This document shows, in pieces, positions 27,176 to 61,172 of a stretch of 64,000 nt of DNA (position 1 is the first letter of the stretch; each line of letters begins with the position of its first letter). Origin of the DNA: Candidatus Binatus sp. (GTDB lineage: Bacteria; Desulfobacterota; Binatia; Binatales; Binataceae); contig NZ_JBEKFG010000004.1 of the NCBI RefSeq assembly GCF_050013435.1, positions 12,967-76,966 of the forward strand, given 5' to 3'. The notes under the pieces were generated by a model. The model ran no database searches. It saw only the letters and a program-made list of their open reading frames with translations, and was not told the DNA's origin. A program made the translations under genes and the position numbers.

Positions 27176-27200
27176 ACAGAGAGAGGAAACCGGCAGCGAG

Positions 27201-37528: not shown

Positions 37529-37598
37529 CTAGAATGAATAACTCTCAAAAGAATGTACGTGCAGTAAGTGTTCGATAGCCACGGAGGCTGCGCAGGTA

Positions 37599-39240: not shown

Positions 39241-39271
39241 AGTGGTGCCGAGGGATGGAGGCTGGAGAAAA

Positions 39272-42088: not shown

Positions 42089-43834
42089 ATGAAACTACTG
42101 CTTGCTTGTGGATGCTGCAGGCCATCAAAGTTCAAACGACACCGTGATACGACCGACGCGCCAATTGAGGCCACCCCCGAAGAACTGCAGGCGATAAGGC
42201 TGCAGCTGGCTGAGATCGAGCAATCGCTCTCGCGCCTATGGGGTCCGACAATTTGGAGCCGCACGCCCGAGTGCATCCAGGTACGCGCCGAGGCGGCGGA
42301 CCTGATCGACCGGCACTTCGACGGCATCGTCGACCAGTGGGTAGAGGCGATCGCCGCCATCACCGACAGCCGCGCTGAATACGATGAAAAGGCGCGCAGA
42401 GCCAGTTTGATCAATGCGCTGATCCGGCTGGGCGATCATCTGCGCGATCCCGACGACATTTGCACCTACGTTTATCTGCGCAAGCATTGCCAGGAGGGGA
42501 TGCTGGCGCGGGCCAAACCCTCTCAGTTCAACACTATCCACATCGCGCTCAAGCAAATAATTCTCAATCACGTAAAATCCTCAATGACCGGTCCCGCGAT
42601 GGAATTGGTGCGCGACCTGGTGGTCGCGGCAATCGACGAGCGGCGCCTGATGGTCTCGCAGTTCTACATCGAATCGCGCGAACGGTTGCTGCGCGAATCC
42701 GAAGAGAAGTACCGCAACACGATCGACCACGCGCCCGATCCAATGTATGAGATCGAAGCGGATACCTGGATCGTGACCGGGCTGAATGCGGCTGCCCTGC
42801 GGCTCCATCAAACGGAGGTGCCAGCAGCCGCCAGAGGTTGGTATGACCACGGCCATGACAAGATGCAGATTATTGGATATCCGATCACAGATTTCGTACC
42901 GCCGGAGCTAAGGGGAAGGGTGATCGACAGCCTGGAGACGGTTTTGCGCCAGGGATCGGCACAGAGCTCGGAATTTCCGATCGGGCCGCTCTTCTTCGAC
43001 GTAAACATCGCGCTGATCACCTATGGCAAGAAGGAATTCATCCAGATGATCTTGCGCGACGTGACGCAACGGCGCGACATGCTCGACTCGCTGATCAAGG
43101 CCGAGCGATTGGCGGCGGCGGGCACCTTCGCGGCGGGCGTGGCGCATGAGGTGAACAACCCGTTGGCGTCGATTTCATCGCTGGTTCAATCGATCCTGAC
43201 CGGCGAGAACGACCCCCAGCGGCGCACCACGCTGCACACCATCCTGTCCCAGATCACGCGCATCTCGAGCACGCTCAAGGACCTGGTGAATTTCGCGCGA
43301 CCGACCACGGCGCAACGCAAGCCGGTGGACGTCAACGGGCTGATCGGCGAGACGCTGCGGCTGATCAGCTACAACACCCGCTTCAGCGGCATCCAGGTTG
43401 AACCCATCCTTGATCCCGATCTGCGCCGCGCGTTTGCCGACGACAACGAAATTCAGCAGGTGCTGCTCAATCTGCTGTTCAACGCCGCCGACGCCTCCCC
43501 TGCCCAGGGCGGCGTGATCAAGGTGATCACCGAGAACCAGCGCGCCGGACAGGGCGCGGACAAATCGCGCCGGGTGGTTATCAAGGTGGTGGACAACGGG
43601 ATCGGAATCCCGCGCGAATATCTGGAACGCGTGTTCGATCCATTCTTCACCACCAAGCCCGCGGGCGCCGGCGTCGGACTGGGGCTGTCGCTATGCCAGC
43701 GCATGATCCTGTCCAACCAGGGCACCATTCGGGTTGACAGCGAGGTCGGCCACGGCACCACCATCACCATCACGCTGGCGGCCGCGGAGGATTCGGTCCG
43801 CGCGGAGCAGGCAGCGAGCATGGCCGCGTCTTGA
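42089..43834 (+). CDS. Sensor histidine kinase (PAS + HisKA + HATPase)
   Basis: H-box HEVNNPLASISS. N/G boxes NLLFNAADAS, VVDNGIGIPREYLERVFDPFFTTK, GVGLGLS. PAS region around residues 200-320. Confidence 0.8.
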   Translation: MKLLLACGCCRPSKFKRHRDTTDAPIEATPEELQAIRLQLAEIEQSLSRLWGPTIWSRTPECIQVRAEAADLIDRHFDGIVDQWVEAIAAITDSRAEYDEKARRASLINALIRLGDHLRDPDDICTYVYLRKHCQEGMLARAKPSQFNTIHIALKQIILNHVKSSMTGPAMELVRDLVVAAIDERRLMVSQFYIESRERLLRESEEKYRNTIDHAPDPMYEIEADTWIVTGLNAAALRLHQTEVPAAARGWYDHGHDKMQIIGYPITDFVPPELRGRVIDSLETVLRQGSAQSSEFPIGPLFFDVNIALITYGKKEFIQMILRDVTQRRDMLDSLIKAERLAAAGTFAAGVAHEVNNPLASISSLVQSILTGENDPQRRTTLHTILSQITRISSTLKDLVNFARPTTAQRKPVDVNGLIGETLRLISYNTRFSGIQVEPILDPDLRRAFADDNEIQQVLLNLLFNAADASPAQGGVIKVITENQRAGQGADKSRRVVIKVVDNGIGIPREYLERVFDPFFTTKPAGAGVGLGLSLCQRMILSNQGTIRVDSEVGHGTTITITLAAAEDSVRAEQAASMAAS

Positions 43835-43853
43835 GAATCGAAATGCGATGAAC

Positions 43854-45272
43854 AACGACGCTTCATGGACCGCACAGGAGCGCGGACCGTACCGGCTGCT
43901 GATCGTCGAGGACGAACCCTTGATGCGCTCGATCATCGTTCAGCTGGCGCGCAGCGAAGGCTACGAGGTGACGGAGGCGCCGGCCGCCGCGGTCGCGCTG
44001 CACATCTTCGAAAAAGAAAAAATCGATCTCGCGATTCTCGACCTTAACCTGACCAGCGGCGGCAGCGGACTCGATCTGCTGCGCAAGATGCGCGAACTCG
44101 ACCCCGAGGTGATGGGAATAATCGTCACCGCCTACGCCAGCGTCGAGTCAGCCGTCGAGGCGCTGCACCAGGGCGCTTACGATTACATCACCAAGCCGTT
44201 TGCCAACGATCACCTGAAGAAGGTGATGCGCAACGCGCTCGAGGGCAAGGCGCTGTTCAGGGAGAACCGTTTTCTGCGCCAGGAACTGCGCGAGAAGTAT
44301 CGCTTCGAGAGCATCATCGGCAAAAGCGACGCTATCGAAAGCGTGTTCCGCGTCATGGAAAAAGTCGCGCGCACCGACACCAGCGTGTTGATCACCGGTG
44401 AGTCCGGCACCGGCAAGGAACTGGTCGCCCGCGCGATTCATTTCAGCTCCGACCGGGCCAGCAACCGCTTCCTGCCGATCAATTGCGGCGCGCTGCCCGA
44501 GAACCTGCTCGAGAGCGAACTGTTCGGCTACAAACGCGGGGCATTCACGGGCGCCGGGGCGGACAAGGTGGGCCTGCTCAAGGCCGCCGACAAGGGCACC
44601 GTCCTGCTCGACGAGATTGGCGAGTTGCCGCTCGCGCTGCAGGTCAAACTGCTGCGCGCGCTCCAGGAGCGCGAGGTCTACCCGCTGGGCGCCAACGATC
44701 CGGTGGCGTTCGACGTGCGCGTGCTGTGCGCCACCAATCGCAACCTCGAATCCGAGGTCAAGGCCGGCCGCTTCCGCGAGGAACTGCTCTACCGAATCAA
44801 CGTCATCAACATCAACCTGCCCGGTTTGCGCGAGCGTCAGGACGATATTCCCCTGCTCGCCAACCATTTCCTGCGCAAGTACGAGAAGTCGTTGCCGCGA
44901 ACTGCGATGCGCTTTTCCAAAGGCGCGATGCGCCTGCTGATCAACTACGCGTGGCCGGGCAACGTCCGCGAACTCGAAAACGCCGTCGAGCGCGCCGCGA
45001 TTCTGGCCGAGACCGACGTCATCCATTCGCACGATTTGCCCGACAAGCTGCGCAGCACGTCGCCGGTGATGGCGAGTATCGAGAACTCGGGCCTCACGCT
45101 CGAGGAGCTCGAGCGCGAGCATATCAAACGCGTGCTCGACAAGGTCGAAAACGACAAGGTGAGGGCCGCGCAGGTGCTCGGCATTCACCTCTCGACGCTC
45201 TATCGCAAGGTTCAGCGCTACCACCTCGACGGCGACCTCCCGGTGAATCAGGAGCCTGCGCGCTCGGCATGA
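43854..45272 (+). CDS. Sigma-54-dependent response regulator (NtrC family: REC + AAA+ sigma54-activator + Fis HTH)
   Basis: [22 protein letters not shown]+ GESGTGKEL with GAFTGA motif and ESELFGY. C-terminal [17 protein letters not shown]. Confidence 0.85.
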
Positions 45273-45360: not shown

Positions 45361-45576
45361 ATGGATCTGTTTGCGCCAACTCACCTGCTGATCATTCTGC
45401 TGATCATTCTGGTCATCTTCGGGCCCAGCAAGCTCGGCGATGTCGGCGGCGCGATGGGCAAAGCGATTCGCGATTTCAAACGCGCGATGAACGAGCCCGA
45501 CGATACGGCCAAGACGGTAGCCAAGCCCGACGAGGCGAAGGCCGCCGATGTTGTAAAGCCCGACAAGATTTCCTGA
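45361..45576 (+). CDS. tatA: Twin-arginine translocase subunit TatA/E
   Basis: MDLFAPTHLLIILLIILVIFGPSKLGDVGGAMGKAIRDFKRAM, the canonical TatA TM plus amphipathic helix. Confidence 0.85.
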   Translation: MDLFAPTHLLIILLIILVIFGPSKLGDVGGAMGKAIRDFKRAMNEPDDTAKTVAKPDEAKAADVVKPDKIS

Positions 45577-45983
45577 TCCGCCGCGCTCCGCCAACTTTCC
45601 CGGACATTCACTTAATGCGCCTGCGATAACGCGCGTCCGTAACACGCGTCATCGATCCTTTCGATCCGTCCGCAGCGTGGGCCCAGCCTGATTGGATGCG
45701 CCATGCGCCCGACATCAAGACGGTCCCGGCGCGCCGCACAAGCGAGTGCGGCAGACTGCCCGAGCGCGCACGCGATCAAATCCAATTTTGTTCGCGCTGA
45801 TCGCACTGACCGCCATCAGCGTATTCGCCGCGAGGAGGATCGGTGTACCTGATGGAGCTGAAGGTGCTCTGCAGAACCAAATTGGTCTGGAAAATCTTGC
45901 AGAGGGAGGCTGTCTGGATTAAAAACAATTTGTAATCAGGAAGTTAAAATCAAAGAGCAAATTGTGATCGCGCGGATTGCGTT

Positions 45984-45999
45984 CGGCATAAAAATTGCT
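45984..45999 (+). promoter_or_regulatory. Candidate sigma-54 (-24/-12) promoter for the upstream cytochrome operon
   Basis: cGGCAT-AAAAA-TTGCT, with GG and GC 12 nt apart as in the TGGCAC-N5-TTGC consensus. Same element ahead of the second cytochrome operon. An NtrC-type activator is encoded 700 nt upstream. Confidence 0.45.
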
Positions 46000-46017
46000 T
46001 AAATAACAGAGCAATGA

Positions 46018-46328
46018 TTTTAGAAATATTAATGAGCGGGCATTTTCCCAAGGTTTACAAGGCGGTCGCCGAAGCGCCCAAAACCATGCTGACTCTTTCG
46101 GATACGACCACATCGCCTTTTGGATACAGTTGTGCCGCTCGGGACAATGTGCGACCGCCGGCATTGAGCCGCTGAACGAACGTTTTTAACGACGGCAGGC
46201 GCCTGAAACGGAGACGGCAAGATGGACAGGGTTACCGCCGATCAGTCCAAAGAGTTGATGGGTTTGCCGCTCAGGAGCCACCTAATGGTACTGGCTAGCC
46301 ACACGAACCGACGGCAGATGGTGAGCGA
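46018..46328 (+). promoter_or_regulatory. Long conserved 5' leader (about 210 nt shared with 54657..54863), candidate cis-regulatory RNA / upstream-ORF region
   Basis: About 75% identity over 210 nt with blocks of exact identity (TTTAGAAATATTAATGAG, GGGCATTTTCCCAAGG, CGGATACGA, CTTTTGGA-ACAGTTGT, CGACGGC, GGAGACGGCAA-ATGGA). In this copy the conserved block ends at an ATG opening a 36-codon upstream ORF (46221..46331), directly ahead of the cytochrome start. Confidence 0.5.
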
Positions 46329-47513
46329 ATGCGCTCGTTGATGTCAGGTACACTAGTAGTGTTGCTGCTCGCGGCGCCGGCGTGGGTGCTGGGCGGCAGT
46401 TCGGAGGCGTCGGCGGCGTCGCCCGAGTTAGCGGCGGTCGCGCCCGGCATAACCTATCCTGTGCTCCCCACCGAGCTGACGCCGCCGACCTACGACTATG
46501 CGGCGCCCGAGACGTGCGCCGGTTGTCATTTTATAGAGGAAGGGAACTTACCTGGCCTCGACCACACTTCGCGTGTATTGGGCGTTTGGTTTGAGAGCGC
46601 TGCCGCTGTCAACGCTTCGTGTACGGCCGGTCCTACGACTTCGGGCGGGGTTACGACCCCCGGCGCTCCATTTGCGTGCTGTACAGGGAAAGGAGCAGGC
46701 ACTTGCTCGAGCATGTGGCAATTGACGGGCAGCGGATGGTTCGCCTCGCGGCACGCGCAGTCCGATTATGCCACGACCGAGAACGGGTTTTGCGCGAAGT
46801 GTCATTCGCCCCTTCAAGCTTACGCTCCCGCAAGCTTCAGCAATGGAGCCGTTGCCAATGCTCCCTCTGTTCCGCAGCAGCGATTCCAAGCTGTGACCTG
46901 TGCAACGTGTCATCCTCCGGATAACATCACCGCGCAGATCGGCGCGTTGAATCCAAGTGCTATGGACGGCGGGGCGGTCTCCATCTATCTCTGGAAGGGC
47001 TACAACAATCCCGCCTCCTATCAGACTCTGAGCACCGGAGTGAACTCCGACGGCACTTCGCAGGAAGACCTGCTATGCCTCAACTGCCATGAGCAGCGTC
47101 ACAACACCGACGATTCGGCCATGTGGGCTATGATGACGACCACCTACGGTCCTAACGGTGGTCCGGTCAGGTGCATCGATTGCCACATGTCGGAGTACCA
47201 GTTCATCGGTGGCGGCAGCACCGGCCTGCCGCTGCTCGAGGAAAGGTTTCACGACTGGAACGTTGGCGCGGACCTTCCTTACTCCTGCGGCGCGGTAGGA
47301 TCAGTGTCGGGATGTCATAACAGCACATATTCCACGTTCACTGTAGCCGACGCGCAGAACCTTATCCCGTTCATTAAAGAGCAGCACACCGATTGGTGGA
47401 CCCTGCCGCCGTTCAATGGAGTGGTACAGGCCGCAGTGCCGGCACACGGGGCGCCTACGCTCATTGAGTACAAGACACTAGAGCGAGAGATATCGAAAAT
47501 TGACGCCATGTGA
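46329..47513 (+). CDS. Secreted multiheme c-type cytochrome (5 CxxCH + one CX8CH)
   Basis: Signal peptide. CAGCH, CAKCH, CATCH, CLNCH, CIDCH, plus LPYSCGAVGSVSGCH (Cys-8 residues-Cys-His). Confidence 0.75.
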   Translation: MRSLMSGTLVVLLLAAPAWVLGGSSEASAASPELAAVAPGITYPVLPTELTPPTYDYAAPETCAGCHFIEEGNLPGLDHTSRVLGVWFESAAAVNASCTAGPTTSGGVTTPGAPFACCTGKGAGTCSSMWQLTGSGWFASRHAQSDYATTENGFCAKCHSPLQAYAPASFSNGAVANAPSVPQQRFQAVTCATCHPPDNITAQIGALNPSAMDGGAVSIYLWKGYNNPASYQTLSTGVNSDGTSQEDLLCLNCHEQRHNTDDSAMWAMMTTTYGPNGGPVRCIDCHMSEYQFIGGGSTGLPLLEERFHDWNVGADLPYSCGAVGSVSGCHNSTYSTFTVADAQNLIPFIKEQHTDWWTLPPFNGVVQAAVPAHGAPTLIEYKTLEREISKIDAM

Positions 47514-47526
47514 GCGCAGTAGGAAG

Positions 47527-49086
47527 ATGATGAATATCAACCCCGCCACATCGAGGCGACCGACGCAGCTACCCCCGGAGGCTTTTGTTCGTCCGGCTGG
47601 GCTCTACGGGCAGTTGCCAATCCCGAGACTGGCTCGGATCGCTGCGATTCTATGTGCGTTGATCCTCGCGTGGAATGCTCAGGGTTGGTGCGCCGGTCCC
47701 CTTCCCCTGAACCTGGACCGTCCCGACTATAATTACTCCGGCCTTACGTGTATGAGCTGCCACTTTAATGCTGCTGAGGGAAATCCCCTCCACACGTCGC
47801 GCGCCGCCGGTGTTACGTATAGCACCACCACGGGCATGTGGGAGCGAACCGGCCATGGCTGGTGGGATTCGCGGCACGCCCAGTCGCAGAACGGCTGGTC
47901 GAATCCGACGTCTACACTTGGCTGGGAACAGCCCAGCGGGACCTACGGCGAGAACGACAATACTTTCTGCGCCAACTGCCACTCGCCGCTTCAGGCCAGC
48001 GTGTACGGGGTCGCATCAATTTCGGAATCGGGCACCACGGCGACAGTGACGCTCTCGGCGCCAGGAATTCCGCTTGCGGACATCGCAGTCGGTGACACCA
48101 TATTCATCGCTGGCAACACCGTTGCTGGCTACAACAACGTTGAAACCACGGCGCCAGCCCCGGCCATAGGTGGATGGACGGTGACCGGTATCACGGATGA
48201 CCCCACCGACACCTTAGCGGCGACAATTACGTTCACAGGGCTTAGCCCTGGTGGTCTTGCGACCGGCACAGGCGGCACTCTCGGAGATACTACCAGGACG
48301 AGCGTGGTGTTCAGCGGCCAGGTGCAAAACCCGGTCACAGTTGTGAGCACTGCTACAGGTACGATCGCTGCAAGTGCTGTAGGCTTTACAGGCGTGTGGT
48401 GCAGTTCGTGCCATCCGAGCAGCAGCCTCGGCGCAGCGATTATTGCGCGATATCCCGGTGTTACTCTGGTATCGGGTGGCGTAACGGCTACGCTCGTCCG
48501 CGGCGCGAATCCGGCCCTGGCAGCCTCGTGGGTTCCGATACTCCCGGGTTTCGACCCTAATGGTGTTTCGTATGAAAGCGACTTCTGCCTGACCTGCCAC
48601 GAACAGGATCCGCATAACGCGGCGTCGAATTCGGTCTTTCAGGTAATGTACGCTTCGGGGGTCTCTTGTATCGATTGTCACATGGCACCATTTGCCATTA
48701 ATACCGGCACCACGGTCGATTCGTTCGGAACTCCGGCGGGGCTTACGGAGCGGTTCCATGACTGGAAGGTCGCCGAAAACTTACCGTACTCGTGCGGCGC
48801 ACAGGGTTCCCTAACTCAATACACCTGCCACTCGGGGTTCAACGCCGCCTCCGCTTTGGCTTATATCCCTTTCATGACCGGCCAACACAGCGCATGGTGG
48901 AGCCTGCCGCCGTTTTCGTCCTCCTCGGAAGCGGTATCAGCACATGAACTGAACGCGACCTCGGACCAGCTCGCGCTGTGGCGCGAGATACAGGCGGTTT
49001 ACGGAGCGAGCGGTAAAGATACCAACTATAAAGAAGCCAGCTATGAGGAAGGGGCCCGGCTGAAGGCCGTGGTCGCAAGGCCATGA
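47527..49086 (+). CDS. Secreted multiheme c-type cytochrome, paralog of 46329..47513 with about 130-aa insertion (5 CxxCH + one CX10CH)
   Basis: CMSCH, CANCH, CSSCH, CLTCH, CIDCH, plus LPYSCGAQGSLTQYTCH. Shares an ERFHDW.V...LPYSCGA block and a C-terminal 'HTDWWTLPPF'/'HSAWWSLPPF' block with its neighbour. Confidence 0.75.
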   Translation: MMNINPATSRRPTQLPPEAFVRPAGLYGQLPIPRLARIAAILCALILAWNAQGWCAGPLPLNLDRPDYNYSGLTCMSCHFNAAEGNPLHTSRAAGVTYSTTTGMWERTGHGWWDSRHAQSQNGWSNPTSTLGWEQPSGTYGENDNTFCANCHSPLQASVYGVASISESGTTATVTLSAPGIPLADIAVGDTIFIAGNTVAGYNNVETTAPAPAIGGWTVTGITDDPTDTLAATITFTGLSPGGLATGTGGTLGDTTRTSVVFSGQVQNPVTVVSTATGTIAASAVGFTGVWCSSCHPSSSLGAAIIARYPGVTLVSGGVTATLVRGANPALAASWVPILPGFDPNGVSYESDFCLTCHEQDPHNAASNSVFQVMYASGVSCIDCHMAPFAINTGTTVDSFGTPAGLTERFHDWKVAENLPYSCGAQGSLTQYTCHSGFNAASALAYIPFMTGQHSAWWSLPPFSSSSEAVSAHELNATSDQLALWREIQAVYGASGKDTNYKEASYEEGARLKAVVARP

Positions 49087-50336
49087 TGACTGGAGCATCG
49101 AAGCGAAGTAAGCGCAATCGGGCACCTGCCATGTGGTCGTTGTCGCTGTTGTTCTTTGGGCTGCTTGCGGTGCTGCCTGCGGCAGGCGCGCAAGCTGCCT
49201 CGAGCGACGAAGGCATGCTGCTTGCGGGAGGCCTGGATCAGCTCAATGGCCCGATGACCACCGCGGAGTATTACAACTTTAAGACGGCAGCCTTCTCCTG
49301 CAAGTTTTTAGGAGGAGTAAATGCTGCTGCCGGAGCGTGCAAGAACACTTTAGCGACGGGCCGTTTCTACGCGTCGGTGGCGCCGCTATCAAGCGGCGGG
49401 GTGTTGATTGCGGGCGGCAACAGCACCGGCGTGACCTGCCTCAACTCCGCGGAGATTTACAATCCGTCAACCGGCAGGTTTACTCCAACCGCTACCAGCA
49501 TGACTGACGCCCATTGTTTCGCGCATACCACCACCGTGCTGACGAATGGCTGGGTTCTAATCACCGGCGGAGAGGACACAACCGGAAACATCGTCAACAC
49601 CGCGGATATGTACAATCCGGCGACTGGGTTCACTTGCTCAACGCTTGGAGGAGTCTCGGCTACTACCGGCTACTGCACAAACACGATGACCGATGTCCGC
49701 TTCCTCGACACCGCAACGCTGTTAAAGAATGGCAGCGTGCTGATCGCGGGCGGTAACGATGGTTCGATCGTTAACACGGCGGAGCTTTTCAACCCCGTCG
49801 CGGGAACCTTCACTGCGACAGGGACGATGACCGACAGCCGCGAAAACCACACCGCCGCCCTGATCGTAACCGGGTCTAATTCAGGCGACGTGCTCATCGC
49901 CGGCGGTATCGACGCTGCGGGCAACGTGCTGCAAACTGCCGAGCTCTACAGTCCGACGGCCGGCACTTTTGCAGCAACCGGCACGATGACCCATCCCCGC
50001 TATCTGCATACCGCGACCCAGCTTAACACCGGGAAAATCCTGATCACCGGTGGCGAAGACGGAGCCGGTGCCGTGCTGGCGAGCGCCGAGGTATACGATC
50101 CTGTTTCCGCAACCTTCGCGTCGGTTAGCTCCATGACCACCGCTCGCGCGCTTCATACGGCTGTGCTGATTACCTCGGGACCCAAGAAGGGTTCTGTCCT
50201 GATCGCCGGCGGGATCGACAACAACGGCAATACACTCGGCACGGCTGAGTTGTACAATCCCAAAACCGGCAAGTTTACCGCGGCCGGTAGCATGGAACTG
50301 GGGCGCTCGTCGCAGGATGGTACGGCGCTGCCATAG
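49083..50336 (+). CDS. Secreted Kelch-repeat beta-propeller protein
   Basis: Signal peptide. Six or seven repeats of 'G.VLIAGG.D..G..L.TAELYNP.TG.FT..G.M...R..HTA.LL..G'. ATGA overlap with the upstream cytochrome. Confidence 0.7.
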   Translation: MMTGASKRSKRNRAPAMWSLSLLFFGLLAVLPAAGAQAASSDEGMLLAGGLDQLNGPMTTAEYYNFKTAAFSCKFLGGVNAAAGACKNTLATGRFYASVAPLSSGGVLIAGGNSTGVTCLNSAEIYNPSTGRFTPTATSMTDAHCFAHTTTVLTNGWVLITGGEDTTGNIVNTADMYNPATGFTCSTLGGVSATTGYCTNTMTDVRFLDTATLLKNGSVLIAGGNDGSIVNTAELFNPVAGTFTATGTMTDSRENHTAALIVTGSNSGDVLIAGGIDAAGNVLQTAELYSPTAGTFAATGTMTHPRYLHTATQLNTGKILITGGEDGAGAVLASAEVYDPVSATFASVSSMTTARALHTAVLITSGPKKGSVLIAGGIDNNGNTLGTAELYNPKTGKFTAAGSMELGRSSQDGTALP

Positions 50337-50351
50337 GGCGACGAGTGACCG

Positions 50352-51281
50352 ATGGCCGATTGTTCGCAATGTGAGACACCGTTCCCGATAGGCGCGAAGT
50401 TCTGCGCTGCGTGCGGCAATCGCGTCGATGCGGCTGGCGTGGACGAACTCCGGCGGCCAAGCGACAGCTGGCCTGGCCGTGGTGGCTTATCAGCTTCATG
50501 GATTGTCGCAGTCAGTGGCGCATTTTTGCTCGGCGGAGTCCTGACGTGGATGTTTATGCCTGCCGGGAAACACGACCGCTCGCAAGTCGCCATGCAGCCA
50601 ACTACCCAGGGACGTGCATCGACTTTGAACGGCCAGGTATCTGGCGTCATGCCGCCCGGACATTCGACGCCCTCCTTACCTTCTGGGCATCCGATGGCTG
50701 GTGGTCCGGCCCACGCCGCCGGCACGCTTATCGCCAAGGCGGAGAAACAGGCCAAGGCCAGTCCCAACGACATCGCAGCCTGGAACCGCCTCGGCGACGT
50801 GGCCTTCCGATCCGCGGTGTTCGACCCCGCGAATTATGACCACGCGCGTGAAGCGTTCACGCACGTGCTGGAACTCGACCCCGACAATCTCGACGCTCTG
50901 CGCGGGCTCGGAAACGTATGCTTCGATCAAAGACAACTCGACAAAGCGATCGCGGCGTACCAGCACTACCTGCGGCTTAAACCGAAAGACGCGCAGGTAC
51001 TAACCGATCTCGGCACGATGTATATGGCCCAGCAAAACTCGCACGAGGCGATCGCGCGCTACTCCGCGGCGCTCGCGCTGGCGCCGAGGTCCTTTCCAGC
51101 TCAGTTTAACCTTGGGGTGGCCTATCTGATGCTCAATGATAACCCCAATGCACGTGAGGCTTTGTCGCGCGCGCGCTCGCTTGCACCTGGAGACGCTGCT
51201 CGCACCAGGATCGATATGCTGTTGGCGCGAATAGATTCAAATGAAATGGCGAAGGGCACTGCTGCCAGCAAGTCGCGATGA
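50352..51281 (+). CDS. Zinc-ribbon / TM / TPR-repeat protein (CcmI/NrfG-like architecture)
   Basis: N-terminal CSQC..CAAC zinc ribbon. One TM helix. A periplasmic region with 4-5 TPR motifs (AWNRLGDVAF.., ALRGLGNVCF.., VLTDLGTMYM.., AQFNLGVAYL..). Confidence 0.6.
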   Translation: MADCSQCETPFPIGAKFCAACGNRVDAAGVDELRRPSDSWPGRGGLSASWIVAVSGAFLLGGVLTWMFMPAGKHDRSQVAMQPTTQGRASTLNGQVSGVMPPGHSTPSLPSGHPMAGGPAHAAGTLIAKAEKQAKASPNDIAAWNRLGDVAFRSAVFDPANYDHAREAFTHVLELDPDNLDALRGLGNVCFDQRQLDKAIAAYQHYLRLKPKDAQVLTDLGTMYMAQQNSHEAIARYSAALALAPRSFPAQFNLGVAYLMLNDNPNAREALSRARSLAPGDAARTRIDMLLARIDSNEMAKGTAASKSR

Positions 51282-51483
51282 AATTTCCCTCACGCTTCAG
51301 TGTGCCGAGTCAAAAGTGGCATCGCTGAACATTGGACCAGTTAAGAGAGCAATCAGGTTAACTTAGAGTAGCTAGAGGCGCCGATATAATTGTTGCCTAA
51401 TCCTCCCAACGGGATCATTAGGCTCGCTTAAGCCGTGTTCCAGTGGTCCGGTTGTTTTCCCCGTCAACACGGGGGAGAAGCAA

Positions 51484-54132
51484 ATGAACAAGTACGCAGG
51501 AAAAGTACGGATCGGCGTGATCGCGATCTTTTGTGGGCTCGCGTTTGCGATTGTCGGCCTTCATCGTTCTTCAGGCCGCGCCTATAGCGGGGTTCCCACC
51601 CCGACCCTACTGGTTTCGGACGTTTGCTCCTACGCCGTCACGGCTTACTCTGCCGCGAGCAACGGCGACGTCTCCCCGCTGATCCCCGTCCCTACCGGAC
51701 TTTCCGCACCGCAATTTGTGACCATTGACCCGAGTGGAAACATTTACGCCACCAACGCCTGCACCAACACCATCACCATTTACGCCGCGGGGAGCAAAGG
51801 CGACACCGGTCCCATCGCCATCATCGGCGGGCCCATGACCGGCCTGAGCGACCCAGCAGGCATCGCGCTGGATTCCAACCTCAACATCTATGTGGCGAAT
51901 GCAGGCGCCCCAGGCGTGTCTGTCTATCAGCCACTGGGAAGCAGCACCGGGCTGCTCAACGAGACCCCCATCGCCACCATCAGCGGGAGCAACACCGGCC
52001 TGCTCTACCCACAAGGCATCGCGGTGGATTCCAGTGGCAACATCTATGTGGCGGATGAAAGCGCCGCCAGCGTGTTTGTCTATCCGCCGCTGGCAAGCAG
52101 CACCGGGCTGCCCAACGAGAGCCCCATCGCCACCATCAGCGGGCTCGACACCGGCCTGAGCAGCCCCGAAGGCATCGCGCTGGATTCCAGCCTCAACATC
52201 TATGTGGCGGATGAAAGCGCCTCGAGTGTGTTTGTCTATCCGCCGCTGGCAAGCAGCAGCGGGCTGCCCAACGAGGCCCCCATCGCCACCATCAGCGGGA
52301 TCGATACCGGCCTGATCAGCCCATACGGCATCGCGTTGGATTCCACCACCGGCAAGATCTATGTGGCGGACGCGCTCGCCACCGGCGTGTTTGTCTATCC
52401 GGCGCTGGGAAAGAGCGTCGGACTGCCCGACGAGGTCCCCCTCGTCACCATCACCGGGAGCAAGACCGGCCTGAGCTACCCACAAGGCATCGCGCTGGAT
52501 TCCAGCGACGACATTTATGTGGCGGACACCAGCAGCGTGTTTGTCTATTCGGCGGGGAGTAAGGGCAATGCCGCTCCCAGTTCGGCCACCATCAGCACGA
52601 CCATGACCACCGGCCTGGGATGGCCACAAGGCATCGCGCTGGATTCCAGCGGCAAAATCTATATGGCGGATGACGGACCTGGAGCCAATGGCCCCGGCAG
52701 CGTGTTTGTCTATCCGGCCGGGAGCAAGGCCAATGCCGCTCCCACCGCCACCATCAGCGGGACCAACACCGGCCTGAGCTACCCACAAGGCGTCGCGCTG
52801 GATTCCAGCAAAAATATATATGTGGCGGACGAAGGCGCCGTCAGCGTGTTTGTCTATTCGGCGGGGAGCAATGGCAACGTCGCCCCCACCACCATCATTA
52901 GCGGGAGCAACACCGAGTTGGACACCCCGGAAGGCATCGTGGTGGATCCCAGCCTCAACATCTACGTGGCCGACGACGGTGACGGATCTTGCGATGGCAC
53001 CGAGAGTTTGTATGTCTATACGGCCGGGAGCATCGGCAATGCCGCCCCTGGCGCCACCATCAGTGGTGGCAACACCGGTCTGTGCTACCCGTACGGCATC
53101 GCGCTGGATTCCAACCTCAACATCTATGTGGCGGACGAGGGCGCCGCCAGCGTGTTTGTCTATCCTCCCTTGGCCAGCCTCCCCAGCCAGCCCAATTATC
53201 CCAACGTGACTCCCATCGCCACCATCAGCGGGAACAACACCGGCCTGAGCGGTCCGTACGGCATCGCGTTGGATTCCAGCGGCAACATCTATGTGTCGGA
53301 CTATTCCGCCAACGGCGTGCTTACCTATCCGGCGCTGGGAAGCAGCACCGGGCTGCTCAACGAGCCCCCCACCGCCACCATAAGCGGTCCGCTCACAGAA
53401 CTGGGGGAGCCTCAGTTCATCGCCGTCCAGCCGGCTGCCGCGCCGACACCGACGGCAACGGCGACTACCACGCCGACTGTGACGGCCACTCCAACCGCGG
53501 TGGCGACGACCTCGATATCGGTACCGAAGAAGCTGGACGTGGGCAAATCGACGCTGGGCAACACGGTGTCCAAGAACCTCGACGTGAAGAACACGGGGAA
53601 GGCGGACTTGTTCATCAACAGCGTATCCTCATCCGACCCTGAGTTCGTCCCCGGCGCCTCGACCTGTCCGGCGGGCGGGCTTGCGCCCAAGGGCAAGTGC
53701 ACGATCGCGATCGGATTCACGCCGACCGTGCTTGGCGCGGGTAGCGCGACGCTCACGCTCGACGATAACGCGGGCACGGGCACGCAGAACGTGGCGCTGT
53801 CGGGGACGGGGGAGCCCGATGTGACGGTATCGCCCGACAGCATCGCTTACGGCAAGGTGAAGTTGAGCGCAAAGAAAAGCAAGACGGTGAAGGTGAAGAA
53901 CGAGCAGCCGGTGGCGGTGACGCTGAGCCAGATCATCACCGGGACCGACGCGAGCTACTTCACGGTGACGGGCGGGACGTGCAGCGGCACGCTGGCGGCC
54001 AAGGCGAAATGCACCTACATCGTGACGTTCACGCCGGTGCTCGGCGTCGAGCGCACGGCGACGCTCAGTGTCACGGCGAGCCCCGACCTGCTAAGCCCGC
54101 ACAATGTGAGTCTAGCCGGCACCGGCTCATAG
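51484..54132 (+). CDS. Secreted NHL-repeat beta-propeller protein with Thr/Pro linker and C-terminal Ig-like (choice-of-anchor-D-type) domains
   Basis: SD GGGGAGAAG. TM/signal anchor. At least 12 repeats of 'P.GIALDSS.NIYVADE.A.SVFVYP' and an AAAPTPTATATTTPTVTATPTAVATT linker. Three LSGTG-bounded domains as in 1064..4810. Confidence 0.75.
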   Translation: MNKYAGKVRIGVIAIFCGLAFAIVGLHRSSGRAYSGVPTPTLLVSDVCSYAVTAYSAASNGDVSPLIPVPTGLSAPQFVTIDPSGNIYATNACTNTITIYAAGSKGDTGPIAIIGGPMTGLSDPAGIALDSNLNIYVANAGAPGVSVYQPLGSSTGLLNETPIATISGSNTGLLYPQGIAVDSSGNIYVADESAASVFVYPPLASSTGLPNESPIATISGLDTGLSSPEGIALDSSLNIYVADESASSVFVYPPLASSSGLPNEAPIATISGIDTGLISPYGIALDSTTGKIYVADALATGVFVYPALGKSVGLPDEVPLVTITGSKTGLSYPQGIALDSSDDIYVADTSSVFVYSAGSKGNAAPSSATISTTMTTGLGWPQGIALDSSGKIYMADDGPGANGPGSVFVYPAGSKANAAPTATISGTNTGLSYPQGVALDSSKNIYVADEGAVSVFVYSAGSNGNVAPTTIISGSNTELDTPEGIVVDPSLNIYVADDGDGSCDGTESLYVYTAGSIGNAAPGATISGGNTGLCYPYGIALDSNLNIYVADEGAASVFVYPPLASLPSQPNYPNVTPIATISGNNTGLSGPYGIALDSSGNIYVSDYSANGVLTYPALGSSTGLLNEPPTATISGPLTELGEPQFIAVQPAAAPTPTATATTTPTVTATPTAVATTSISVPKKLDVGKSTLGNTVSKNLDVKNTGKADLFINSVSSSDPEFVPGASTCPAGGLAPKGKCTIAIGFTPTVLGAGSATLTLDDNAGTGTQNVALSGTGEPDVTVSPDSIAYGKVKLSAKKSKTVKVKNEQPVAVTLSQIITGTDASYFTVTGGTCSGTLAAKAKCTYIVTFTPVLGVERTATLSVTASPDLLSPHNVSLAGTGS

Positions 54133-54621: not shown

Positions 54622-54637
54622 CGGTATAAAAATTGCT
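54622..54637 (+). promoter_or_regulatory. Candidate sigma-54 (-24/-12) promoter for the mtrAB-like operon
   Basis: cGGTAT-AAAAA-TTGCT. Identical architecture and flanking ATAAAAATTGCTTA as at 45984. Confidence 0.4.
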
Positions 54638-54656
54638 TACTTGGCAGGCTGACGTC

Positions 54657-54860
54657 TTTAGAAATATTAATGAGAGGGCATTTTCCCAAGGGTCACAAGG
54701 CCGCCACGGAAGGGTCCTAAAGCTGAATGGTTCTTCCGGATACGATCGCGTTGTCTTTTGGACACAGTTGTCCTGTCTTGGGGGCGATGTGTAACCGACG
54801 GCGGTAAGCCGCTAGAGGGCGCGTTTGCCGACGGCGGACGCCCGAAATGGAGACGGCAAT
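54657..54860 (+). promoter_or_regulatory. Conserved 5' leader, second copy (see 46018..46328)
   Basis: Aligns to 46018..46223. Here the conserved GGAGACGGCAATATGGA ends exactly at the decaheme cytochrome start codon. Confidence 0.5.
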
Positions 54861-55883
54861 ATGGAGGAGGAACGCAGCTCGCGAAAGTTTTGGGCAGGTC
54901 TTTTGGTGGCACTGGTCGCGGTTGGAATCGCCTTCGTGTTTTCATCGCCCCCCGCAATCGGCGCGGAAGGCACCCTGCTTTCCCAAGCCGCGGGATCGGG
55001 GACGACGCTGCCGCCCGGCTACGTCCATAATGACACCTGCGTCAGTTGCCATGATGTGCAGGTCAAGGCCTTCCGCAACACGATGATGGGCCATCTTATG
55101 CTGGGCCGGCCGCGCGACGACCGAGAAAGCCTCGCGTGCCAGGCCTGTCATGGTCCCGGCCGCGAGCACTTACGCCATCCGAGCAAGCCGTCGCCGGGAT
55201 TTGTGAGCTTTCGCGAGACCTCCTTCAAGGACATCAAGGTTGAGAACGAGCGGTGCCTCGAATGCCATCAAAACGGCGAGCGCGGCTTCTGGCGGGCCAG
55301 CACCCACGCCGAGCGCGGCATTCGATGCGTCGATTGTCACGCCGTGATGTGTCCGGTGACGGCGAGCGCGCTGCCGCAGGCGCAACTCAAGAAGTCGCCG
55401 CTTGGCACGGAGTTCGTCAATCCATTCATCGTGACGCGCCCCGAAACCCAGGTTTGCCTGCGCTGCCATCTCGACAAAAAGATGGAGATCAATCTGCCGT
55501 CGCACATGCCGCTGCGCGAGGGATTGATGACGTGCACCGACTGCCACAACCCACATGGCGGGCCGTATCAGAAGCAATTGCGGGCGGCGATGGTCAATGA
55601 GGTCTGCTACCGCTGCCATGCCGAGAAGCGCGGGCCGTTCCTGTGGATGCATGCGCCGGTGGCGATGAACTGCATCAATTGCCATGTCCCGCACGGCAGC
55701 GTGAATCAGCACATGCTGGTGATCAACATGCCGGTGCTGTGCCAGCGCTGCCACATCGGAACTAGTCATACGAGTCAACCTCATAGGAGAGGTCAAATTT
55801 TCGTGATCAACCAGCAATGCGCCAATTGCCATTCACAGATACACGGCTCGAACTCGCCGGGCGGGAGATATTTCACGCGTTGA
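54861..55883 (+). CDS. Periplasmic decaheme c-type cytochrome, MtrA/PioA/MtoA/DmsE family
   Basis: Start MEEERSSRKFWAGLLVALVAV (signal anchor). Ten CxxCH motifs in about 340 aa, several as CxxCHxPHG. Directly followed by an MtrB/PioB-type barrel gene. Confidence 0.75.
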   Translation: MEEERSSRKFWAGLLVALVAVGIAFVFSSPPAIGAEGTLLSQAAGSGTTLPPGYVHNDTCVSCHDVQVKAFRNTMMGHLMLGRPRDDRESLACQACHGPGREHLRHPSKPSPGFVSFRETSFKDIKVENERCLECHQNGERGFWRASTHAERGIRCVDCHAVMCPVTASALPQAQLKKSPLGTEFVNPFIVTRPETQVCLRCHLDKKMEINLPSHMPLREGLMTCTDCHNPHGGPYQKQLRAAMVNEVCYRCHAEKRGPFLWMHAPVAMNCINCHVPHGSVNQHMLVINMPVLCQRCHIGTSHTSQPHRRGQIFVINQQCANCHSQIHGSNSPGGRYFTR

Positions 55884-55954
55884 AGCGGGAGGCACAGGAA
55901 AGCACGGCATCGCTGGGCCGCACCGCGTTTTGCAACCGGCCCGGGAGGAAAGTC

Positions 55955-58210
55955 ATGAACCTCAAGCGGTTGTTAGCCGGATGTGGAACGATGGCGCTCG
56001 TGTTGTCGATGGTCTCGCCGGCACTGGCACAGGTCGATGTCGGGAAATACACGGTGCAGGGATCGGTCGAGGCGGGCGCCATCCCCCAGCCCGTCCCCTA
56101 TGACGACTCCGCGGCGAAGTATCAGGAGTACCGCGATCTGGCGCAGCAGTTCATCGTGCCGAAACTCCAGTTGATCCTGGGCGACAAGGCGGAGAACTAC
56201 TACGTGCAGTTCGACGCGGTTAACGTCGCACAAAAGAACCAGATGTATTCGCTGCGCTTCGGCGAGTACGGCCTGCTCGATGTTCAGGCAAAATTCTTCG
56301 AGATTCCACACGCCTTCAGCGACGGCGTCGCGAGCACGCCATACGACGAAAACGGCGGCAGCTTCACGCTATCCTCGAAGCCCACTGGTACCGGCACCGC
56401 CCTCCAATCCTGGCTGGCAGCGAACGACAAACCGTTCGACATGAGCCTGCTCGAAGGTGTCGCGGACATCAACGTGCGCTATACGCCCACGCCGTCGCTG
56501 AGCTTCAGCGCGAACCTGGATTATCAGAACCCCACCGGCCAACAGCCATTCGGTGGCAGCTTCATGTTTGGCGCCAATCCGGGCAGTTACAAAGTGAACG
56601 AACTCTGGGCGCCAATTCAGTACTACATCTATAACTTCGGCACCGGCATGGAATACGCGAAAAACGGATGGCTGGTGGGGTTCCAGTACCAGGGATCCTT
56701 CTTCGTCGACGACTACAGCACCCTGACCTGGGACAACCCGCTCAATACCAGCGGAGTAGGCGGCAATTGCGTGGATTCCACCGTCTTCAGTTCCACGTCG
56801 CTTACCGGCCCATGCGAGGGACGGGCAGCGATGTATCCGAACAACCAGGCTCACAACTTCATCGTGAATGGAGCGGGTCAGCTTCCATTCAACACGCACG
56901 TGATGGGCAGCCTCGAGTACGGATTCTGGCTCCAGAACTCTCCCTTCATCCCGCTTACGAGCAACAGCACGCTGAAGCAGTCATTAAGTTCGGTCGGGGC
57001 GCCCAATAGCCTCGGCGGCGACGTGCAACCTTTCTTCGCCAACTTCACGATCGACAGCAATCCGATCGAGCCGCTGGACATCAAGGCGGTCTATACCTAT
57101 TTCGATTACGACAACCTGACGCCGGGGGTCACCTTCAAAGGCGTTAAGTCGCTCAATGACATCTCGGACCCGCAGATGCCTTTCAGCGCTTATCCCTTTT
57201 CATTTTCGGAGCAGGACGTCAGCCTCGAGCCAACCTACCACGTGACTGATACTATAGCCGCGCACTTTACTATGAAGTGGCAGACCAACCACAACGAGGG
57301 GCTGGAGGTGCTGCAGCAGGATCAGCTCAGCTATGGGCCTGCGCTCGATTGGAACCCATATCCGTGGCTGACTTTCCGGGCGGATTACCAGCACGCGCAC
57401 CGCGACTCGCCGGGATACAACAACAACCGCGCCGACCTAGTCGAGATCCTTGGCGGGATCCCGGGAGGGATCGCGGAGGTTCAGGACCTGCGGCGGTTCG
57501 ACGAGGCCACGGTCGATGTGAACCAGACTTCGCTCTATGCCTCCGTGCAGCCGATCGAAAACGTCAGCCTGTTCAGCTCCTTCAGCTACGACGACTATAA
57601 CTACCCCTCGACCGACTTCGGCCTGCAGCATACGTCGAGCTACACGCCGTCGGTGGGGGGCAGTTACGATCCGCTTCCGACCCTGCATTTTTTCGGCGAC
57701 TACGCATGGCAAGCGTACGATTGGAACCTAAGGTCGCTTTACGGGGGTACCGGCGTAAAGCCGGGTGTGCCGGGAAAATCGTGGGTTTGGACGGCGGATG
57801 GCCGCAACCAGGGCAACAATTTCGATCTCGGGATGGACGTCGCGATACCGCAGAATCATATCCTGAAGCGGCCGTCGCACCTGAAAATCCAGTACACCTA
57901 TACGGTTGGCAGCAACCTCACCCACCAATCGGGCGCTACGGCGGCCGGTTCGGCGTCGGAGGCGATCGACTATCCAAATGCCGGCACCCAGATGGAAGAG
58001 TTGATGGTTCAGTACGAGTACGATTTGCGCGACAACCTCGCGATCAACATCGGGTACTACTTCAACAATTTCGGCGAACACAATTACATGGTGGACCAGA
58101 TGGCGAACTACATGCCCGGCGCCAGCAAAAACTCGACATTTCTCGGCAACTCCGACATGTCCCCCTACAACGCCAATGTCGGATTCATAACTCTTAAATA
58201 CAAATTTTAA
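55955..58210 (+). CDS. MtrB/PioB-family outer-membrane beta-barrel (porin component of porin-cytochrome conduit)
   Basis: SD GGAGGA. Signal peptide MNLKRLLAGCGTMALVLSMVSPALA. About 750 aa, rich in alternating aromatic beta-strand pattern. C-terminal ..GFITLKYKF ends in the aromatic residue typical of OMPs. Position after the decaheme gene. Confidence 0.7.
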   Translation: MNLKRLLAGCGTMALVLSMVSPALAQVDVGKYTVQGSVEAGAIPQPVPYDDSAAKYQEYRDLAQQFIVPKLQLILGDKAENYYVQFDAVNVAQKNQMYSLRFGEYGLLDVQAKFFEIPHAFSDGVASTPYDENGGSFTLSSKPTGTGTALQSWLAANDKPFDMSLLEGVADINVRYTPTPSLSFSANLDYQNPTGQQPFGGSFMFGANPGSYKVNELWAPIQYYIYNFGTGMEYAKNGWLVGFQYQGSFFVDDYSTLTWDNPLNTSGVGGNCVDSTVFSSTSLTGPCEGRAAMYPNNQAHNFIVNGAGQLPFNTHVMGSLEYGFWLQNSPFIPLTSNSTLKQSLSSVGAPNSLGGDVQPFFANFTIDSNPIEPLDIKAVYTYFDYDNLTPGVTFKGVKSLNDISDPQMPFSAYPFSFSEQDVSLEPTYHVTDTIAAHFTMKWQTNHNEGLEVLQQDQLSYGPALDWNPYPWLTFRADYQHAHRDSPGYNNNRADLVEILGGIPGGIAEVQDLRRFDEATVDVNQTSLYASVQPIENVSLFSSFSYDDYNYPSTDFGLQHTSSYTPSVGGSYDPLPTLHFFGDYAWQAYDWNLRSLYGGTGVKPGVPGKSWVWTADGRNQGNNFDLGMDVAIPQNHILKRPSHLKIQYTYTVGSNLTHQSGATAAGSASEAIDYPNAGTQMEELMVQYEYDLRDNLAINIGYYFNNFGEHNYMVDQMANYMPGASKNSTFLGNSDMSPYNANVGFITLKYKF

Positions 58211-58331
58211 GCCGAGGCTATTGGAGTACGAGCAGCAAGAGTCCGGGACAAACAACGAATGACCTATCTTCCGCCGCGGCCCGGCCCGCAAATCAAACGG
58301 CGGAAAAGGAATGGAAGGAAGGAGAGAAGAC

Positions 58332-58745
58332 ATGACCGAGAGTTTGACAACCAAGGGTCGATCGAGAGTGTGGATTTGGACCGCGACGGTTATACCGGCG
58401 GTTGCAGCGCTGGCGTTGATCTCAACCGCCGCCCGCGCAGCCGATCTCACGTCCGCGGCCAGCAGCTACACGGATACGTGCGCCAAGTGCCACGGCCCGG
58501 CCGGCAAGGGCGACGGTCCCAAAGCGGCCGAGCTGAAAGACAAGGACGGCAAACCGGTCGCCATCGGAGATTTGTCCGATTGCGCCAAGATGAGCAAGGT
58601 TACCGATGACGACTTGTTCAAGGAGCTGAAAGAGGGCGGCGCGTCGGTGGGCAAGAGCAAGTTCATGACGCCCTATGGCGATGCGATGGAGGATGACGAG
58701 ATCAAGGCGATGGTTGCGTACGTCAGAACCTTGTGCAAGAAGTAG
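58332..58745 (+). CDS. Periplasmic monoheme class-I cytochrome c (MtoD-like position)
   Basis: SD GGAAGGAAGGAG. Signal peptide. Single CAKCHG heme site. Met-containing C-terminal half (KFMTPYGDAMEDDEIKAMVAYV). Confidence 0.75.
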   Translation: MTESLTTKGRSRVWIWTATVIPAVAALALISTAARAADLTSAASSYTDTCAKCHGPAGKGDGPKAAELKDKDGKPVAIGDLSDCAKMSKVTDDDLFKELKEGGASVGKSKFMTPYGDAMEDDEIKAMVAYVRTLCKK

Positions 58746-58774
58746 CGGCGCGCACCACGTCGGCAATCGGCCAT

Positions 58775-58880
58775 CCCAATACGGGCACTCAGTTCCATGG
58801 GTTGATGTTTTAGTATGTGTACGATTTTGCGCGATAACGTCGCGATCAACGTCGGCTACTACTTCAGCAAGTTTAGATAA
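58775..58880 (+). pseudogene. Remnant of a second mtrB-like gene 3' end
   Basis: Aligns to mtrB 57966..58210 with internal deletions (..ACGATTTTGCGCGATAACGTCGCGATCAACGTCGGCTACTACTTCAGCAAGTTTAGATAA against ..ACGATTTGCGCGACAACCTCGCGATCAACATCGGGTACTACTTC..AAATACAAATTTTAA). Confidence 0.55.
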
Positions 58881-58910
58881 CCCGCTTTCACCGAAGGAAG
58901 GAGATAAGCC

Positions 58911-59324
58911 ATGTCGAAGAGTTTGAGCAGTAAAATTCGATCGAGTCTGTGGATTTGCACCGCGTCGGCCATACCGGCGGTTGCAGCACTGGCGTTGTTC
59001 TCAACCACCGCCCGCGCAGCCGATCTCACGTCCGCGGCCAGCAGTTATACGGATACGTGCGCCAAGTGCCACGGTGCGGCCGGCAAGGGCGACGGCCCTA
59101 AAGCGGCCGAACTGAAAGACGCGGCCGGCAAGCTGGTCGCCATCGGAGATTTGTCCGATTGCGCCACGATGGCCAAGGTTACTGACGACGACATGTTCAA
59201 GGAGCTGAAAGAGGGCGGCGTGTCGGTGGGCAAGAGCAAGTTCATGACGCCCTATGGCGATGCGATGGAGGACGACGAGATCAAGGCGATGGTTGCGTAC
59301 GTCAGAACCTTGTGCAAGAAGTAG
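58911..59324 (+). CDS. Periplasmic monoheme class-I cytochrome c, tandem duplicate of 58332..58745
   Basis: About 90% identical protein with the same CAKCHG site and its own strong SD (GAAGGAAGGAG). Confidence 0.75.
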   Translation: MSKSLSSKIRSSLWICTASAIPAVAALALFSTTARAADLTSAASSYTDTCAKCHGAAGKGDGPKAAELKDAAGKLVAIGDLSDCATMAKVTDDDMFKELKEGGVSVGKSKFMTPYGDAMEDDEIKAMVAYVRTLCKK

Positions 59325-61145: not shown

Positions 61146-61172
61146 GCGAATCGGCGCGGACGAGAGAGACAA

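Follow-up and report, generated by a model that had tools for sequence, protein, structure and literature searches.

Duplication of a sigma-54-type promoter and leader cassette in front of two cytochrome operons of Candidatus Binataceae

The 64-kb stretch of DNA analyzed here, which we refer to as the window, is part of contig NZ_JBEKFG010000004.1 from a member of Candidatus Binataceae, an uncultured bacterium from peat. It carries two cytochrome operons, the second of which begins with mtrA and mtrB, and each is preceded by a copy of the same segment of ~365 nucleotides (nt). Both copies contain a conserved upstream block, a GG-N10-GC promoter core of the sigma-54 type, a leader of ~212 nt, and a shared Shine-Dalgarno sequence (SD) and ATG. 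We read this as an ordinary duplicated sigma-54 regulatory region, and nothing that we tested shows a new structured regulatory RNA. The explanation we favor, and which we consider probable though well short of certain, is that both segments descend as paralogues from a single complete cassette, duplicated during rearrangement of the cytochrome genes.

Copy 1 lies at 45862-46226 and copy 2 at 54507-54865, with 78% identity between them. A MAFFT alignment of 45860-46345 with 54505-54900 gives a mean column identity of 78% over 494 columns, and from the predicted start site to the ATG the copies are 74% identical. Exact blocks common to both include one of 18 nt (TTTAGAAATATTAATGAG) and one of 16 nt (GGGCATTTTCCCAAGG). 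The pair was picked up independently by a repeat search of the window (family D11), and a search of the 64-kb window with a profile of the pair detects each copy, with E-values of ~1e-118 to 1e-120, and no third site. The first-pass annotation had described two similar segments at these places, as alignment, repeat search and profile search all bear out, but the limits that it set are too narrow; homology sets in at 45862 and 54507, ~125 nt ahead of the promoter, and stops 5 nt into the conserved ATG, within the shared sequence GGAGACGGCAAnATGGA. In copy 2 the MtrA-type gene (54861) begins at this ATG.

The promoter cores (GGCAT/GGTAT-AAAAA-TTGCT) have GG and GC exactly 10 nt apart in both copies and are embedded, as had been noticed previously, in an identical context, ATAAAAATTGCTTA. 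A relaxed form of the core, GGYAYN5TTGCW, occurs four times in the window where 0.83 matches are expected. The core is present in all of the aligned leaders and orthologues, and GG-N10-GC/TTGCT persists at four related loci (L013, L015, L043, and L045) in which the flanks can no longer be aligned. The motif GAFTGA is visible in the translation of the adjacent NtrC-type activator gene (43848-45272), which ends ~710 nt upstream of copy 1 and whose product is 97-99% identical in relatives; a kinase gene lies directly upstream of it both here and in L018, L019, L022, L027, L037, and L041. We infer that both promoters use sigma-54 because of the exact spacing of GG and GC, the adjacent GAFTGA activator, and the persistence of the element among unalignable flanks. 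The proposal in the first-pass annotation of a sigma-54-type -24/-12 element in both copies, together with a neighboring kinase and NtrC-type activator, thus finds support in both the sequence and the Pfam matches.

The conserved upstream block has the consensus CTGGAAAA(A)TCTTGCA ... G(C/G)TGT(C/T)TGGA, and an AT-rich, poorly conserved spacer separates it from the promoter. No clear dyad was found in it. As for an IHF site, a match to WATCARNNNNTTR was seen by eye in copy 1 only. Sites for the activator, if there are any, are more plausibly located in this block than in the leader.

Related loci were gathered by exact-protein look-up, from one genome per species, and by scanning metagenome contigs with a DNA pattern made from the conserved blocks, and their gene order was mapped by tblastn. 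Seven of them (L018, L019, L022, L027, L036, L037, and L041) have a single cassette in the order kinase, activator, tatA, cassette, mtrA, mtrB, and tatA precedes the cassette in every relative whose contig extends that far. A module running from the cytochrome genes to the TPR gene lies after mtrB in L040-L042, and ahead of mtrA in the window, L017, L020, L021, and L038. The window, L017, and L038 alone have two full cassettes, a consequence of the position of the cytochrome/Kelch/TPR(/NHL) module ahead of mtrA in these loci. L020 and L021 also have the module ahead of mtrA, but their copy b has decayed except for the final 60-100 nt adjoining the mtrA ATG. L020b (L020 9808-9843) and L046 (556-591) each contain part of the CGCCTTTTGGATACAG block in inverted orientation, as a minus-strand match. 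The first cytochrome gene is accompanied in all arrangements by the ~45 nt that immediately precede it, and at the window junction the mtrA-start relic abuts these ~45 nt.

Other relatives have altered or lost parts of the leader. L043, with 81% MtrA identity, has TGGCACGCGTAATGCTTA ~50 nt from the ATG and a leader of only ~40 nt, and even here the motif seen in the mtrA-start relic (SD plus ATG) is kept. The leaders of L045 and L015 are unrelated, and that of L013 is partly alignable. The decayed second cassette of L020 and L046 also holds a degenerate promoter, GGTGGTATAAAATCCCTG. In L010 a remnant that we read as an IS110-type transposase (9319-9750) stands in place of the promoter and the 5' half of the leader, and ~150 nt of leader are left before mtrA. 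An insertion of ~800 nt is present between tatA and the upstream block in L022 (~8650-9500) and L036 (~1700-2560), and is not seen in other relatives.

The paralogous window copies (w1 and w2) are 74% identical, whereas w1 is 82% identical to L022b and w2 is 87% identical to L036b. Each copy is closer to its orthologues and the two have therefore diverged independently since an old duplication, with no homogenization. Conservation of the leader had been thought unusual for a 5' untranslated region (UTR), but this is not borne out. Between the window and its relatives the leaders are 71-95% identical, the fourfold-degenerate sites of the flanking genes 77-93%, and the other spacers of the cluster (mtrB-cytc1, cytc1-cytc2, and cytc2-multihaem) 78-98% with near-full coverage; the cytc2-multihaem spacer aligns over its full length, almost free of gaps. 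These figures suggest that the leaders are alike chiefly through shared ancestry, having diverged about as fast as other non-coding DNA of the cluster.

In the scheme that we propose, the original layout was likely kinase, NtrC-type activator, tatA, cassette, mtrA, mtrB, and the genes that follow. In the lineage of the window the cytochrome/Kelch/TPR(/NHL) module would have come to sit before mtrA, with the cassette on both sides of it, so that the new operon and mtrAB would be read from the same kind of promoter. The kinase would phosphorylate the activator, which would bind the upstream block of both copies and remodel sigma-54 RNA polymerase, and two extracellular-electron-transfer operons would be switched on together; the leader would have been inherited along with the promoter. 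The anatomy, the series of duplication and decay, the conserved promoter motif, and the domains of the activator are seen directly in the sequences, and sigma-54 use, activator binding, co-regulation of the two operons, and any role of the leader are inferred from them. Within the leader, independent persistence is clearest for the last 60-100 nt, which contain a GC-rich segment (GGGCGC..GCGCCC) followed by GAAATGGAGACGGCAAGATG. This part stays with the mtrA start where the promoter has been lost, so it most likely serves translation initiation or mRNA stability.

Several observations weigh against duplication of an ordinary sigma-54 region as the full account. Both promoters have three mismatches from the strict consensus TGGCACGN4TTGCW, and a scan of the window with this consensus at up to two mismatches is uninformative, giving six matches where 12.1 are expected, with neither promoter among them. 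A sigma-70-like site, TTGGCA-16-AATATT at 54641-54668, overlaps the predicted start of copy 2, and its -35-like hexamer is TTGACA in L018b and L038b. No sigma-70 promoter is found in copy 1, and this single weak site in copy 2 is not shared by the copies and is therefore not a common feature, so we rejected it as such. Majority-base conservation is 0.8-0.95 in the leader versus 0.5-0.65 in the AT-rich spacer that precedes the promoter, with fewer insertions and deletions, and some leader blocks survive in L013, where fourfold-site identity is 63%. These surviving blocks are TTAG..A...TAATGAG at +13 to +29, a pair of CTTTYGGAYAC sequences with 22-nt spacing, and the GC segment before the SD. 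Their survival makes it likely that the leader has some sequence-specific function. Finally, the direction of the rearrangement is drawn from counts of genomes rather than from a rooted tree.

What such constraint might mean is addressed by three alternatives, none of which we consider likely. In the first, the leader is a docking platform for protein, either an RNA-binding translational regulator of the CsrA/RsmA kind acting at repeated GGA motifs, one of which is in the SD, or a DNA-binding regulator whose operators would lie downstream of the transcription start. Candidate operators include TTA-N7-TAA at ~+13 to +25 and the two CTTTYGGAYAC repeats 22 nt apart. The most invariant columns of the leader alignment form short blocks and not helices (TTAG..A...TAATGAG, CTTTTGGA, ATGTG, and CCGCT), a repeat search finds the direct repeat CTTTCGGATAC / CTTTTGGATAC with a 22-nt spacing that is kept in L013, GGA motifs recur up to the SD (AUGGAGA) and are mostly conserved, and a TTTGGA.TACA-like motif is present in the upstream block too. 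However, these motifs are short and were recognized in hindsight, the first repeat has GGGCAC instead of GGATAC in three of 15 leaders (L027b, L040b, and L042b), and L043 dispenses with the whole region. CsrA and RsmA recognize the consensus CANGGANG, which the flanks of the GGA motifs do not resemble, and presentation of these motifs in loops depends on a fold that is not supported (see below). The AT-rich block at +9 to +30 was also considered as a Fur box or palindrome and rejected, as it has no convincing dyad. The invariant short blocks (TTAG..A...TAATGAG and the CTTTYGGAYAC pair) could, as a lead, be protein-binding sites; docking is in our view an unlikely explanation of the leader.

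The second alternative is that the leader is a clade-specific post-transcriptional element of the electron-transfer operons of Binataceae, on whose invariant blocks a protein or small ligand acts; these could be the GC hairpin that precedes the SD, the CUUUYGGAYAC pair, and TAATGAG at ~+23 to +29. We consider this decidedly unlikely. The last ~65 nt of the leader recur between the tandem cytochrome c paralogues of L018 (13908-13973) and L019 (13897-13961), as CCGCTGAACG..GGCAGGCAC..AAATGGAAACGGCAAG, and the GC segment of the L018 element has two compensatory changes (GAGTGC/GCACTC); the equivalent spacer of the window (58746-58910) does not contain the element. If the leader were a post-transcriptional element, the last 60-100 nt would be a portable translation or stability module, used also before a cytochrome c gene in L018 and L019, and the duplication would have put two operons under one post-transcriptional signal as well as one sigma-54 activator.

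The third alternative, which we hold to be more doubtful still, is that the leader is a structured cis-regulatory RNA (a riboswitch, thermosensor, or attenuator) that gates both cytochrome operons in response to a sensed signal. The first-pass annotation had proposed a structured regulatory RNA, attenuator, or processed small RNA, and none of these gains support from the Rfam, folding, covariation, terminator, or copy searches. A search of the whole window with Rfam 15 at gathering thresholds finds only tRNA, and that elsewhere than on the leaders, and at E-values up to 10 both copies and L027 give chance matches only. The folding energies of the two copies are no better than those of shuffled sequences (z of +1.5 and -1.0). 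RNAalifold applied to two sequences has too little information to be of use, and the alignment of 15 distinct leaders, with a mean identity of 82%, is too similar for much statistical power. From these 15, RNAalifold proposes ten helices with a covariation term of -0.82 kcal/mol, and paired cells amount to 94.8% versus 93.9% in shuffles. The hairpin set is consistent, and many of the changes are compatible with G-U pairing, but in the per-pair tables A-C mismatches look, on inspection, roughly as common as G-U pairs. Four pairs have changes on both sides, versus 2.7 expected, a number reached by 121 of 500 shuffles.

Individual parts of the predicted structure fare no better. A 19-nt hairpin-like insert, CCTCGTCGTTGCGAGGAGC, is found at a predicted junction in nine of the 15 leaders and leaves the flanks undisturbed, as would suit a structured RNA, but the 5' domain that includes this optional hairpin is non-significant (70/500). 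The 3' module, aligned from 20 sequences with divergent ones included, has two mutually exclusive folds, one with a hairpin just ahead of the SD and the other with helices 8/9 further upstream, and neither is significant (62/500 and 33/500, respectively). One position of the pre-SD hairpin GGGCGC/GCGCCC shows C-G, U-G, and U-A among divergent copies, but also C-A, G-G, and C-C. In L013, the most divergent full-length homologue, helices P1 and P2 are broken by inspection, and in 0.49 Mb of related loci a covariance model of the 5' domain detects nothing beyond the sequences used to train it, and misses L013. No terminator-like site is found in the region of either copy, and the RNAalifold model places the SD in a loop, with no helix that sequesters it. 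The short leader of L043 and the unrelated leaders of L045 and L015 also argue against a conserved fold. Two pairings were set aside separately: a perfect 9-bp complement in copy 1 (46061-46069 / 46151-46159), which by inspection of the alignment is not kept even in L017 and is treated as chance, and UUUGCCG-CGGCAAG between the SD and AUG, which by eye is unsupported in L020b, L023b, and w1.

Searches for further copies of the leader in other gene contexts, made by pattern scan of metagenome contigs and, over the related loci, by nhmmer and covariance model, were negative, and every other copy located sits in the same gene cluster. The metagenome pattern scan gave seven matches, six of them true and all of these upstream of mtrA; the seventh, in L039, was rejected as a chance AT-rich match. 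The lack of copies outside this cluster among the related loci and metagenome contigs, together with the weak or non-significant covariation, is essentially the outcome that the first-pass annotation had itself named as telling against its proposal. A defined regulatory fold is not demonstrated by these data, and the alignment is too shallow to disprove one.

It is very improbable that a leader peptide or other small protein is encoded here. One candidate is an open reading frame (ORF) that starts at the invariant TAATGAG and runs for 44-47 codons in nine of 15 copies, but it has no SD, and a frameshift or stop leaves 6-19 codons in the other six, including window copy 2; it was rejected on account of these frameshifts and the stop, and its peptide identity decays, by eye, about as fast as expected from unconstrained nucleotide change. 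An attenuator built on a leader peptide is further disfavored by the absence of terminators in the two copies. The other candidate is the upstream ORF of copy 1, which had been given as 36 codons and in fact has 39 (46222-46341). It carries the conserved SD, but its first codon coincides with the end of the conserved sequence, at the bases equivalent to the start codon of mtrA, and it therefore lies after the conserved block and not inside it. It is absent from L020a and L021a, and in L017 (1416-1600) a 4-nt difference relative to window 46222-46341 puts the relic ATG in frame with the signal peptide of the cytochrome. As the ORF is separate in the window and in frame in L017, it is a by-product of the junction and not a conserved feature.

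An equally remote prospect is that the copies are kept similar by gene conversion or belong to a mobile or repetitive element; they are in direct orientation and 8.6 kb apart, but each is nearer to its orthologues than to its paralogue, just two are present in the window, all of the others lie in the same gene cluster with the true pattern-scan matches all upstream of mtrA, and the absence of terminal inverted repeats at the ends of the copies, in an element of two copies and one gene cluster, does not fit a repetitive extragenic palindromic (REP) element or a miniature inverted-repeat transposable element.

Features of the two copies and of the surrounding genes are collected in Table 1. Homologues carry the name DmsE family decahaem cytochrome, Candidatus Binataceae, the closest named relatives of the MtrA protein are Candidatus Binataceae, and an identical MtrA protein is present on nine peat metagenome contigs. 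The cytochrome c genes after mtrB (58314-58613 and 58893-59192) are a tandem duplication with 87% nucleotide identity (family D7; Pfam). A third sigma-54-like core, GGCATAAGAGTTGCT, is present at 883-897 on the plus strand, ~165 nt upstream of a gene (1064-4810) coding for a 1248-aa NHL-repeat/Ig-like protein that appears, from its NHL/Ig domains and DNA repeats, to be a paralogue of the NHL protein of operon 1. The leader behind this core has no similarity to the two cytochrome leaders, but the gene may be part of the same regulon as the two cytochrome operons.

Table 1. Coordinates of the cassette copies and neighboring genes in the 64-kb window
Feature	Position	Strand	Basis or remark
Copy 1 upstream conserved block, CTGGAAAATCTTGCA ... 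GCTGTCTGGAT; candidate activator-binding region	45862..45915	+	Aligned to copy 2 and orthologues; ~70-125 nt upstream of -24
Copy 1 sigma-54-type promoter core, GGCATAAAAATTGCT (GG-N10-GC)	45985..45999	+	Predicted start near 46010
Copy 1 leader, predicted 5' UTR, ~212 nt	46010..46221	+	Alignment
Copy 1 relic of mtrA translation start, GGAGACGGCAAGATG	46210..46224	+	One base different from copy 2
Copy 2 upstream conserved block, CTGGAAAAATCTTGCA ... GGTTTGGACTACAA	54507..54572	+	Alignment to copy 1 and orthologues
Copy 2 sigma-54-type promoter core, GGTATAAAAATTGCT	54623..54637	+	Predicted start near 54648
Copy 2 leader, predicted 5' UTR, ~213 nt, up to mtrA ATG	54648..54860	+	Alignment
Histidine kinase (weak PAS match, HisKA, HATPase_c), presumed sensor	42089..43834	+	Pfam, translation
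NtrC-type sigma-54 enhancer-binding response regulator	43848..45272	+	Pfam: receiver, AAA+ (Sigma54_activat, E 4e-68), Fis-type helix-turn-helix (HTH_8)
tatA	45361..45576	+	Pfam; gene order
39-codon ORF from relic ATG, overlapping cytochrome start (46329) by 13 nt	46222..46341	+	Junction by-product
Operon 1, total	46329..54132	+	Pfam
Operon 1 multihaem cytochromes	46329-47513, 47500-49086	+	Pfam
Operon 1 Kelch protein	49083-50336	+	Pfam
Operon 1 TPR protein	50352-51281	+	Pfam
Operon 1 NHL/Ig protein	51484-54132	+	Pfam
Operon 2, total	54861..63294	+	Pfam
Operon 2 MtrA/DmsE-type decahaem cytochrome	54861-55883	+	Pfam
Operon 2 MtrB/PioB porin	55817-58210	+	Pfam
Operon 2 remainder: two cytochrome c paralogues, two multihaem cytochromes, cytochrome b		+	Pfam

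Other repeats were seen elsewhere in the window. Families of 31-120 nt (D12, D15, D16, and D19) occur at 25644-27181 and 37064-39242, ~11-12 kb apart; examples are GCAGGGCTGAGCCCTGCACCC.. and ACGG..TTTTTTT..GTCATCCTGAGCG.AGCGAAGGA, and they look like REP-type intergenic elements. A 70-nt repeat is present three times (6098-6167, 8190-8259, and 10418-10487; family D13) with a spacing of ~2.1-2.2 kb and 77-91% identity, and it may mark tandem paralogous genes.

The closest known arrangement is that of an NtrC-family two-component system next to its own sigma-54 target. Such systems beside sigma-54 promoters have been catalogued in Desulfovibrio vulgaris (PMC4641369), and the RpoN regulon has been catalogued in Geobacter sulfurreducens (PMC2725144). 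As in these systems, a kinase and an activator with receiver, AAA+ (GAFTGA), and helix-turn-helix domains adjoin the presumed target, and the target has a GG-N10-GC promoter with TTGCT at -12 and a conserved block ~70-125 nt upstream of -24. The precedents differ in that the target here is a Binataceae porin-cytochrome cluster of the MtrAB/PioAB type, and in that the cassette is present twice, including the long 5' UTR and the start codon of the first gene.

Riboswitches for cyclic GMP-AMP (cGAMP; GEMM-Ib) are located upstream of extracellular-electron-transfer cytochrome genes in Geobacter (PMC6456294, PMC8835794). The Binataceae leaders resemble them in being long, conserved, placed before multihaem cytochrome operons, and repeated in one genome, but they have no match to GEMM or any other Rfam family, no terminator or expression platform, and no significant covariation, and they are confined to one gene cluster of one narrow clade. 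The distribution of the MtrAB, PioAB, and MtoAB porin-cytochrome conduits has been reviewed (PMC8805035), and the window shares with these a decahaem cytochrome of the DmsE/MtrA family followed by an MtrB_PioB porin (Pfam), a likeness that concerns the cargo genes and not the leader. Unlike them, the cluster here is linked to extra cytochromes and to Kelch, TPR, and NHL proteins, and appears to be under sigma-54 control. Our literature searches on regulation of Mtr in Binataceae found nothing. To our knowledge, control of an MtrAB-type module by sigma-54 has not been described previously.

These findings add no new class of regulatory RNA; they provide mainly a clear instance of duplication of a whole cassette, together with a regulatory hypothesis for Binataceae. 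A complete promoter-plus-leader cassette, down to the start codon of the first gene, can be copied during operon rearrangement, and relatives in intermediate states show such a copy being retained or decaying. One kinase/NtrC-type pair probably switches two cytochrome operons through the duplicated sigma-54 promoters, which offers a testable regulatory picture for the iron or electron-transfer genes of an uncultured but abundant peat lineage.

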